DNA of 64,000 nucleotides from Escherichia coli. Lineage in GTDB: Bacteria; Pseudomonadota; Gammaproteobacteria; Enterobacterales; Enterobacteriaceae. This document shows positions 12,001 to 15,000 of the stretch, piece after piece. Position numbers: made by a program. The stretch is from the NCBI RefSeq assembly GCF_017348835.2, contig NZ_CP071375.1; one strand, written 5' to 3'. Position 1 is the first letter of the stretch; each line of letters opens with the position of its first letter.

Positions 12001-15000
12001 TAGCTTTACCTGTCTGTACTGATGTAGCCATATTATCCCCCTAAAACGGTATTCCTGTCGGAACCGCACCTGTTTTGTTCTGAAGCGTATTCAGAACAAT
12101 ATTTTCCGTTGCTAATGCCAGTGAACAGACTTTGGAAATTGTCCCGAAACGGGTTCGTTTCGGGACACCGTTACCGTTAAACGTTATCAGGTATGTTTAA
12201 AGCTGTTCTGTTGGGCAATACCCTGCAGTTTCGGGTGATCGCTGAGATATTTCAGGGAGGCTTTGTAGTCTTCCAGCAACAGTTCAGCAAAGTCCATTTC
12301 GAAGCCGCGACGACACATAATGCGCATCACCACGATGTCGGTGGCTTCACCGCCGAGAGTGAAGGCCGGAACCTGCCAGCCGCGCAGACGCAGACGTTCA
12401 GAGAGGTCGTACAGGGTGTATCCCGGATCTTCACCATCTTTCAGTTTGAAGCAAACCGCCGGGATGCCTTCGTCCGGGCGACCCGTACAGATGAACTCAT
12501 ACGGCCCCAGTTTGGCGATTTCATCCGCCAGATAGGCAGCGACCTGGTAGGAAGCATTCTGTACTTTGGTATAGCCTTCACGACCAAGGCGCAGGAATTC
12601 ATAGTACTGTGCAATCACCTGACCTGCCGGGCGGGAGAAGTTGATGGCGAAAGTACCAATCTGACCCCCCAGGTAGTCAACGTTGAACACCAGTTCCTGC
12701 GGCAGCGCTTCTTCGTCACGCCAGATAACCCAGCCGCAGCCCAGAGGAGCCAGACCGAATTTATGGCCTGAAGCACTGATCGATTTCACACGCGGCAGGC
12801 GGAAGTCCCAGACGATATCCGGGGCGACGAACGGTGCCAGAAAGCCACCGCTGGCGGCGTCGATGTGCATGTCGATGTCGATACCGGTGTCGGCCTGGAA
12901 TTTATCCAGCGCATCGTGCAGCGGTTGCGGGAACTCATAGTTACCGGTGTAGGTCACGCCGAAAGTCGGCACCACGCCGATGGTGTTTTCGTCGCAGGCT
13001 TCAATCATGCGTTTCGGGTCCATAAACAACTGACCGGGGCGCATAGGGATCTCACGCAGCTCCACATCCCAGTAGCGGGCGAATTTATGCCAGCAGATTT
13101 GTACCGGACCGCACACCAGGTTTGGTTTATCCGTTGGTTTGCCTGCAGCTTCCATACGCTTGCGCCAACGCCATTTCATCGCCATCCCGCCGAGCATACA
13201 GGCCTCGGAAGAACCAATGGTGTTGGTGCCAACGGCCTGACCATTTTTCGGCGCAGGCGCATGCCACAGATCGGCAACCATGTTTACGCAACGCAGGTCG
13301 ATGGCTGCGGATTGCGGATATTCTTCTTTGTCGATCCAGTTTTTATTGATCGACAAATCCATCAATTTATGGACGTTTTCGTCGTCCCAGGTCTGGCAGA
13401 AAGTGGCCAGGTTCTGACGAGCGTTGCCATCAAGATATAATTCATCATTGATAATCTGAAATGCGACATCGTCGCGCATTTCGTGCAGCGGAAAACGTTT
13501 TGATTCTGCGATAGTGGAAATAGACTTCGCACCAAAACGTGAATCGAGTAGTTCCGACCTTAAATCCGTTACTTGCTTCTTATCCATTTTAAACTCCTTA
13601 AAATGATTGGATCGCATTAAAAAAGTAGGATTTATCGATAAAGTAAGCAAGTGCAAAGGACTCGGGTTTAAATAACAAAATCCTAATGTTATTTATCGTG
13701 AGATATTACGCGAATAATATTTTTTCATTGAAAAACAATATAATAGGGAGTTCTTGGGTGGTGGCAAGGTGTTTTATGCTGTTATTTTTATGCGCATTCT
13801 GTGCCTCCTGAATTATCACGTAAAAATCAGACCTTAAAATATCACTATTAGTACTTAGTTATTATTTTGAACGCATTTATAAAATTATTACATAAAAATG
13901 GCGAATATTGCTAAAATTCCCGCCAACGATGTGTTGACGGGACTGTTATTATTTTGGCAATAATACTCCGGTATAGGTATTTACCGGATGAGAAAGATAT
14001 TGTTTAACGGCAGTATTAACATTCTCTACTGTCATTTGTTTCAACAGTTGCTCCTGCTCAGTCCATGCTGCAGGATAGTCATATTGAATAAGACTATTTA
14101 CAATGGTGTTCGCTAATTGTTGAACGCTACGCTGTTGGATATCGAGGCTGCGCTGAACGTTTTGCTGGTATTCATTCAGTTCTTGCTCACTGATCCCTTT
14201 AGCCAGACGCTTAACCATCACTTCATTCGCTAACGTTAACAGTTCATCATGTCGTTCTGGTTGACAAGTAAAAGCCAGCAAATGACTGATATCTTTGGCC
14301 TGAGGATCAACCGAGAGGCGAGAAGAAACGCTGTATGCCCCAGATGCCTGTTCACGAATATTAACGCGTAGATCTTTTGCCAGTGCGACGTTAAAAGCAT
14401 CGAGCGCCATACGCGTCGCCAGATTAACAGGTGTCCGGGAATCATAACGCTTCCACTGTGAAACCTGTGCCACAGGTTCATTTTGTTCCTTTACAGTAAC
14501 CGATGCATTGTCCGTCGCGCGAGTTAATGGTTTACCTGCGGCTAATGGCGAATCAGAGTGTTTGATTGATCCTAAGTAACGCGTAATTAACGCCACGAGT
14601 TTGTCTTCTGCGACATTACCGACAATGACAAACGTGATATCCGCTGGAGATGAAAACAACTGGCGATCGGCAGCCAGCGCATCTGCGGCAGTAAACTGTA
14701 CAATCTGATTTTCTTGCAGTAATTTCGTGCGGTCATCAGCATAGCGCGTCTCATACATCTGCTGGGCGAATTTCTCCGCTGGACGCTGGTCGAGCGTTTT
14801 CAACGCCTGAATTTGAGCATTTTGTAGCGATGCCCAAATATTGTCGTTAATCGTGCTGTGGGTGATTCGCTGGTTAATCAACTGGAAACCAGGTTCAGGG
14901 TTATTAGTCCGCGCGCTAACGGAGAGCAATGTATTCATGCCACTGACTTTACTGCTCATGGTTACCGAGTTTTCCGCACTCCAGCGTTTCAGGCTGGAAG

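Follow-up and report, generated by a model that had tools for sequence, protein, structure and literature searches.

Does the region upstream of gadB in this Escherichia coli genome carry the canonical GAD box, and is the presence of the box there, beside acid-resistance genes that look intact and loci that have decayed, anything out of the ordinary? The locus lies in a 64-kb stretch of contig NZ_CP071375.1, referred to here as the window, and all positions are counted from its first base. The gadB-pqqL intergenic region occupies exactly 13588..13948, the ATG of gadB being at 13587 on the minus strand and the stop codon of pqqL starting at 13949. The exact 20-bp GAD box, TTAGGATTTTGTTATTTAAA, was found within this region at 13667..13686 on the minus strand, which is the coding strand of gadB. 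When both strands of the 64-kb window were searched with up to 3 mismatches allowed, the 20-mer was matched once. The original prediction had placed an exact GAD box at this position upstream of gadBC, and both its sequence and its coordinates were correct, the site being unique in the window. None of 100 dinucleotide-preserving shuffles of the window contained any match to TTAGGATTTTGTTATTTAAA with 3 or fewer mismatches. Downstream of the box lies a gene whose product has 100% identity to K-12 GadB, and gadC comes next.

The same 20-mer is quoted as a characterised GadE site by Seo et al. (2015, PMC4918353), who list gadBC as a direct target of both GadE and GadX. The GAD box has been described as a 20-bp element whose centre lies 63 bp upstream of the transcription starts of gadA and gadBC, and at gadA 16 bp separate it from the -35 element downstream (Castanie-Cornet et al. 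2010, PMC2887963). The heterodimer of RcsB and GadE protects positions -50 to -76, and at K-12 gadA its binding and its requirement for activation were demonstrated by footprinting, EMSA and lacZ fusions (PMC2887963). In the same study the M1 mutation, which hits the conserved G of TTAGGA, identified this residue as critical for binding (PMC2887963). The GAD box in the window includes this G. It is separated by 16 bp (13651..13666) from the -35 hexamer TTGCTT (13645..13650, minus strand), a gap that matches the published gadA and gadB geometry, and both its sequence identity and its spacing are established here. The GAD box of the K-12 gadBC promoter was reportedly the subject of earlier work by Castanie-Cornet and Foster in 2001 and by Ma and colleagues in 2003.

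The K-12 gadB promoter has the same 20 bp as the window, the same -35 hexamer, RcsB box, -10 hexamer, 5′ untranslated region and Shine-Dalgarno sequence, the same 16-bp spacing, and the same place between pqqL and gadB. Over the stretch that starts 12 bp before the box and runs to the ATG, a single difference from K-12 gadB was found: 13665, the second base past the box, is C in the window and A in K-12. About 10 more substitutions lie farther upstream than -85, in spacer sequence that is not conserved. The K-12 gadA promoter shares the 20 bp, the spacing to TTGCTT, the GATAAATCCTACTTTTTT segment and the Shine-Dalgarno sequence with the window, but the remainder differs. Alignment to the K-12 gadA and gadB promoters, which had been proposed as the way of checking the box, thus revealed no divergence within it. 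By its sequence, its spacing, its target gene and its conservation, the element reads as the gadBC GAD box itself and not as a relative of it.

The remaining promoter elements, all on the minus strand, could be assigned around the box. The -35 hexamer was read from the sequence and is identical in K-12 gadB and gadA. The -10 hexamer, TACTTT, lies at 13622..13627, separated from the -35 hexamer by a 17-nt spacer, and is invariant in the comparison with K-12 gadB and gadA and among seven E. coli strains. Subtraction of the published 63 bp (PMC2887963) from the box centre at 13676.5 places the transcription start at about 13614, a position that is calculated rather than mapped; transcription would then begin 7-8 nt past the -10 hexamer, leaving 27 nt before the ATG. 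Relative to this predicted start, the RcsB/GadE heterodimer site would extend from about -53 to -72, an assignment that draws on the exact match, on conservation and on the two published studies (PMC4918353, PMC2887963). The Shine-Dalgarno sequence of gadB, AAGGAG, was read at 13594..13599 and is invariant in the comparisons with K-12 gadB and gadA, with the seven E. coli strains and with the 8 Escherichia gadA/gadB promoters. Directly upstream of the -10 hexamer, the core of the RcsB box, CGATAAATCC, matches K-12 gadB exactly at 13628..13637, with borders that we infer. This box is conserved at gadB except that a C replaces the G at its left end, and at gadA it is the site of repression when the RcsB concentration is high (PMC2887963). 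The gadB-specific C is present in the window.

These observations almost certainly have their best explanation in a standard GAD box that is read by RcsB/GadE and switches on gadBC. Nothing in the sequence examined gives an argument against this reading. By analogy with the published work on K-12, from which protein binding, activation and the acid-resistance phenotype are all carried over, the locus would work as follows. The RcsB/GadE heterodimer would bind the 20-bp box at 13667..13686 (minus strand) and thereby drive transcription of gadB and gadC at acid pH and in stationary phase; the box ends 16 bp short of the -35 hexamer and has its centre about 63 bp before the transcription start. 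The second RcsB site, which abuts the -10 hexamer, would let strongly activated RcsB repress the promoter. Farther upstream, at about -200 to -220, a GadX/GadW-type motif in a conserved block may contribute minor extra activation, and the AT-rich spacer (31% GC) is of the DNA type that H-NS would be expected to silence. The EvgA-dependent ydeP and safA-ydeO units would feed the cascade from EvgA through YdeO to GadE, which would end at the GAD box. The gadBC GAD box in this strain is therefore an already known, textbook element and represents no new biology.

The original prediction also held that the acid-resistance circuitry is intact, with ydeO, safA and ydeP about 10 kb away. The three genes are indeed nearby, although the distance was slightly underestimated and amounts to 11-14 kb. 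As for intactness, the claim is borne out for the parts that lie in the window, namely gadB, gadC, ydeO, safA, ydeP and the EvgA boxes, and is limited to them. All five genes are on the minus strand, and the intactness of their reading frames is established here. The gene for glutamate decarboxylase B, gadB (12187..13587), encodes 466 aa with no difference from K-12 and has no internal stop or gap. The gene for the glutamate:GABA antiporter, gadC (10496..12031, 511 aa), is intact and differs from K-12 at 1 aa. The gene for the AraC-family acid-response regulator, ydeO (24468..25229, 253 aa), is full length with 7 aa differences from K-12, and its DNA is identical to that of the pig isolate PE164, where the product is annotated as YdeO (WP_089637838.1). 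The gene for the EvgS-to-PhoQ connector, safA (25304..25501, 65 aa), is likewise full length, with 4 aa differences, and the gene for the acid-resistance oxidoreductase, ydeP (25749..28028, 759 aa), is intact with 1. The proteins concerned are thus 97-100% identical to characterised K-12 proteins.

EvgA boxes were matched with a consensus that we take to be TTCYTACANNTGTARGAA. The box upstream of safA-ydeO (25613..25630, plus strand) has 1 mismatch to it and is identical to K-12. The box upstream of ydeP (28272..28289, plus strand) also has 1 mismatch to the consensus; it is one base off K-12, the window being nearer to the consensus. The EvgA-YdeO branch of the AR2 cascade is accordingly represented by ydeO, safA and ydeP at their K-12 length and by both EvgA boxes. 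Both the promoter and the operon of gadBC are wild type in this strain, the linked ydeP and safA-ydeO regulatory genes are present as well, and glutamate-dependent acid resistance is, judging from the sequence, probably functional. The 155-bp spacer between gadB and gadC (12032..12186) is identical to that of K-12. Just past the gadB stop codon, this spacer contains a strong hairpin, GTGTCCCGAAACG...CGTTTCGGGACA.

From ddpD to eamA, the window and E. coli K-12 are collinear, with 97-99% identity. Several of its loci are nevertheless decayed, as the original prediction had stated, and the contrast that it drew with the acid-resistance genes holds: lesions were found in ddpA, in hipA through an IS3 insertion, in an autotransporter gene, in dgcF and in yneK. 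The ddpA frame is interrupted by TAG at codon 203 of 516 (3402..3404), and dgcF by TAA at codon 173 of 315 (53654..53656). In yneK, a 1-nt deletion after 59426 (59426/59427) causes a frameshift. The hipA gene (35699..36842) is split by an IS3-family remnant that carries an ALIL frameshift pseudoknot at 36096..36212 on the minus strand. Because hipB (37108..36842) is intact, an antitoxin is left without its toxin. The autotransporter gene of the yneO / ECSE_1600 family (37319..40414, minus strand) is in fragments; its counterpart in PE164 is annotated as frameshifted and partial, and yneO of K-12 is also a pseudogene. Despite this list, the contrast between intact and decayed loci is modest, amounting to about 5 lesions across 64 kb of E. 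coli DNA that is otherwise normal. A Shigella origin, which talk of decay might suggest, was considered and rejected: the window is collinear with K-12 and close to it in sequence, is nearly identical to E. coli PE164 and is damaged at a few loci only, so that its source is an E. coli of a PE164-like clone.

Gene loss in this lineage has a bearing on whether the acid-resistance system works at all. The alternative that survives best supposes that the cis element and the reading frames are perfect, but that the system is dead through a defective trans factor, such as gadE, rcsB, rpoS or evgS, encoded outside the window. The genes gadE, rcsB, evgAS, gadXW and rpoS are in fact all encoded elsewhere; in K-12, gadE, gadX, gadW and gadA are located in the acid fitness island. 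Mutations in rpoS are frequent in E. coli isolates, and the lineage does lose genes, as seen for ddpA, hipA, dgcF and yneK in the window and for gadB in the nearest relative, PE164. When 701 bases around the GAD box were used as a query, a match was obtained in 5,425 of 5,426 complete E. coli genomes, with 97.3% identity to K-12; at least 99% identity was reached in only 5 records, the closest being the pig isolate PE164 (NZ_CP114128.1). The gadBC locus of PE164 has an identical promoter region and shows 2 differences from the window over 30.1 kb. One is a G/A difference at window position 14015, in pqqL. The other is a TA insertion in gadB (TATA to TATATA, at window position 12570), because of which gadB of PE164 carries the annotation of a frameshifted pseudogene, whereas gadB in the window is intact. 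This insertion could be a real, recent loss of gadB or an assembly error. A frameshifted gadB in PE164 indicates that the operon can be lost in the lineage despite a perfect box. PE164 also has an internal stop in ddpA, and it retains 1,488 bp of hipA/IS3 sequence that is absent from the window, where the deletion runs from the C-terminal fragment of hipA into IS3 (junction 36108/36109).

Against a dead system stand the 5 acid-resistance genes of the window, which are without lesions. In addition, GadB is 100% identical to K-12 despite 2% synonymous divergence of the DNA, which points to purifying selection on the protein, and nothing positive indicates the loss of a trans factor. We therefore consider a perfect but silent operon unlikely, and a standard GAD box in a working operon is retained as the preferred reading.

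The upstream part of the spacer raises a different possibility. The gadB-pqqL spacer has 31% GC compared with 48% for the window. Among the seven E. coli strains compared (93-100% local identity, O157:H7 included), no variation occurs in the GAD box or anywhere between the -35 region and the ATG, but the 3 bases right after the box, 13665 among them, vary. A second invariant block was found at about -190 to -235, and the spacer between this distal block and the GAD box block varies freely among the seven strains. The distal block contains a GadX/GadW-type motif, AGGTCTGATTTTTACGTGAT, at 13815..13834 on the minus strand (about -201 to -220), with 1 mismatch to the GadX/GadW ChIP-exo motif AKGKCTGWTWTTWWYMYVAK of Seo et al. 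(PMC4918353). With 2 mismatches allowed, the motif was also found upstream of K-12 gadA and near gadY/gadW, and 0 of 200 shuffles reached this count. The motif match makes 13815..13834 a candidate distal GadX/GadW site.

Within this AT-rich spacer, some 120 nt before the normal start, lies a sigma-70-like sequence, TTGCCA-16 nt-TATTAT (13767..13740, minus strand), which could act as an additional promoter independent of GadE. It matches 10 of 12 consensus positions, and both hexamers are nearer to the consensus than those of K-12 (TTACCA and TATTGT). If it were active, a lineage-specific upstream promoter would give GadE-independent, constitutive transcription of gadBC in this pig-associated clone, in whose nearest relative gadB has been lost. 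However, a consensus scan of the region returned 2 promoter-like matches, a number not above that in shuffles (mean 2.6), and AT-rich DNA of the H-NS type is full of such matches. The upstream hexamers, moreover, vary freely among strains and so are not under selection. An additional promoter at this site is accordingly very improbable, and the RcsB/GadE-dependent start near 13614 remains the one that we favour. The true gadB promoter was itself missed by the simple consensus sigma-70 scan, its hexamers being weak and its score too low. Such a low score is expected of a promoter that depends on an activator and on RpoS, but the scan provides no independent support for it. In an Rfam scan of the whole window, no RNA family was matched in the gadB-pqqL spacer, and the sole match was the ALIL pseudoknot in the IS3 remnant within hipA. 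The consensus scan also returned two weak terminator-like hairpins, regarded as non-functional; the first falls within the 3′ end of pqqL and the second is on the non-coding strand. A 41-aa open reading frame at 13686..13811 (plus strand) falls in sequence that is variable among strains.

To place the box in a wider context, one genome per bacterial and archaeal species (about 298 Gb) was scanned for the exact 20-mer. This yielded 11 matches, 8 of them in Escherichia: two in each of 2 genomes labelled E. coli, two in Escherichia sp. E1V33, one in E. albertii and one in E. whittamii. All 8 Escherichia copies precede, by 67-68 nt, the AAGGAG of a gene of the gadA type (MDQKLL/MEQKLL) or the gadB type (MDKKQV). 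The other 3 exact copies come from unrelated MAGs of Lentisphaeria and Bacteroidales, where no gad gene follows the 20-mer; these copies are chance matches at a scale of about 298 Gb, and the 20-mer by itself is not diagnostic without its context. One might take these 3 copies to mean that the match upstream of gadB is likewise an AT-rich coincidence without regulatory meaning, but this reading has virtually no probability left and is refuted by the conservation and spacing data, given that the window shuffles yielded no match even with 3 mismatches, that the box stands before gadB at the same position and spacing as in K-12, that it does not vary across Escherichia species although the flanking bases do, and that the GAD box has been defined experimentally in K-12 (PMC2887963). 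The conservation of the gadBC GAD box, established here, also bears on the description of the box as retained. It is certainly present, but the implied notability does not follow, since every Escherichia sequence examined has the box unchanged and its retention here is the default, expected state.

Farther along the window, a fimbrial region (30396..34771) was found to contain a full-length usher gene, ydeT (883 aa), and after it a gene for a chaperone (33089..33808) and one that resembles fimA (34160..34771). In K-12, by contrast, ydeT is truncated and the remaining fimbrial genes are missing; from the gene content the ydeQRST fimbrial operon looks complete in the window.
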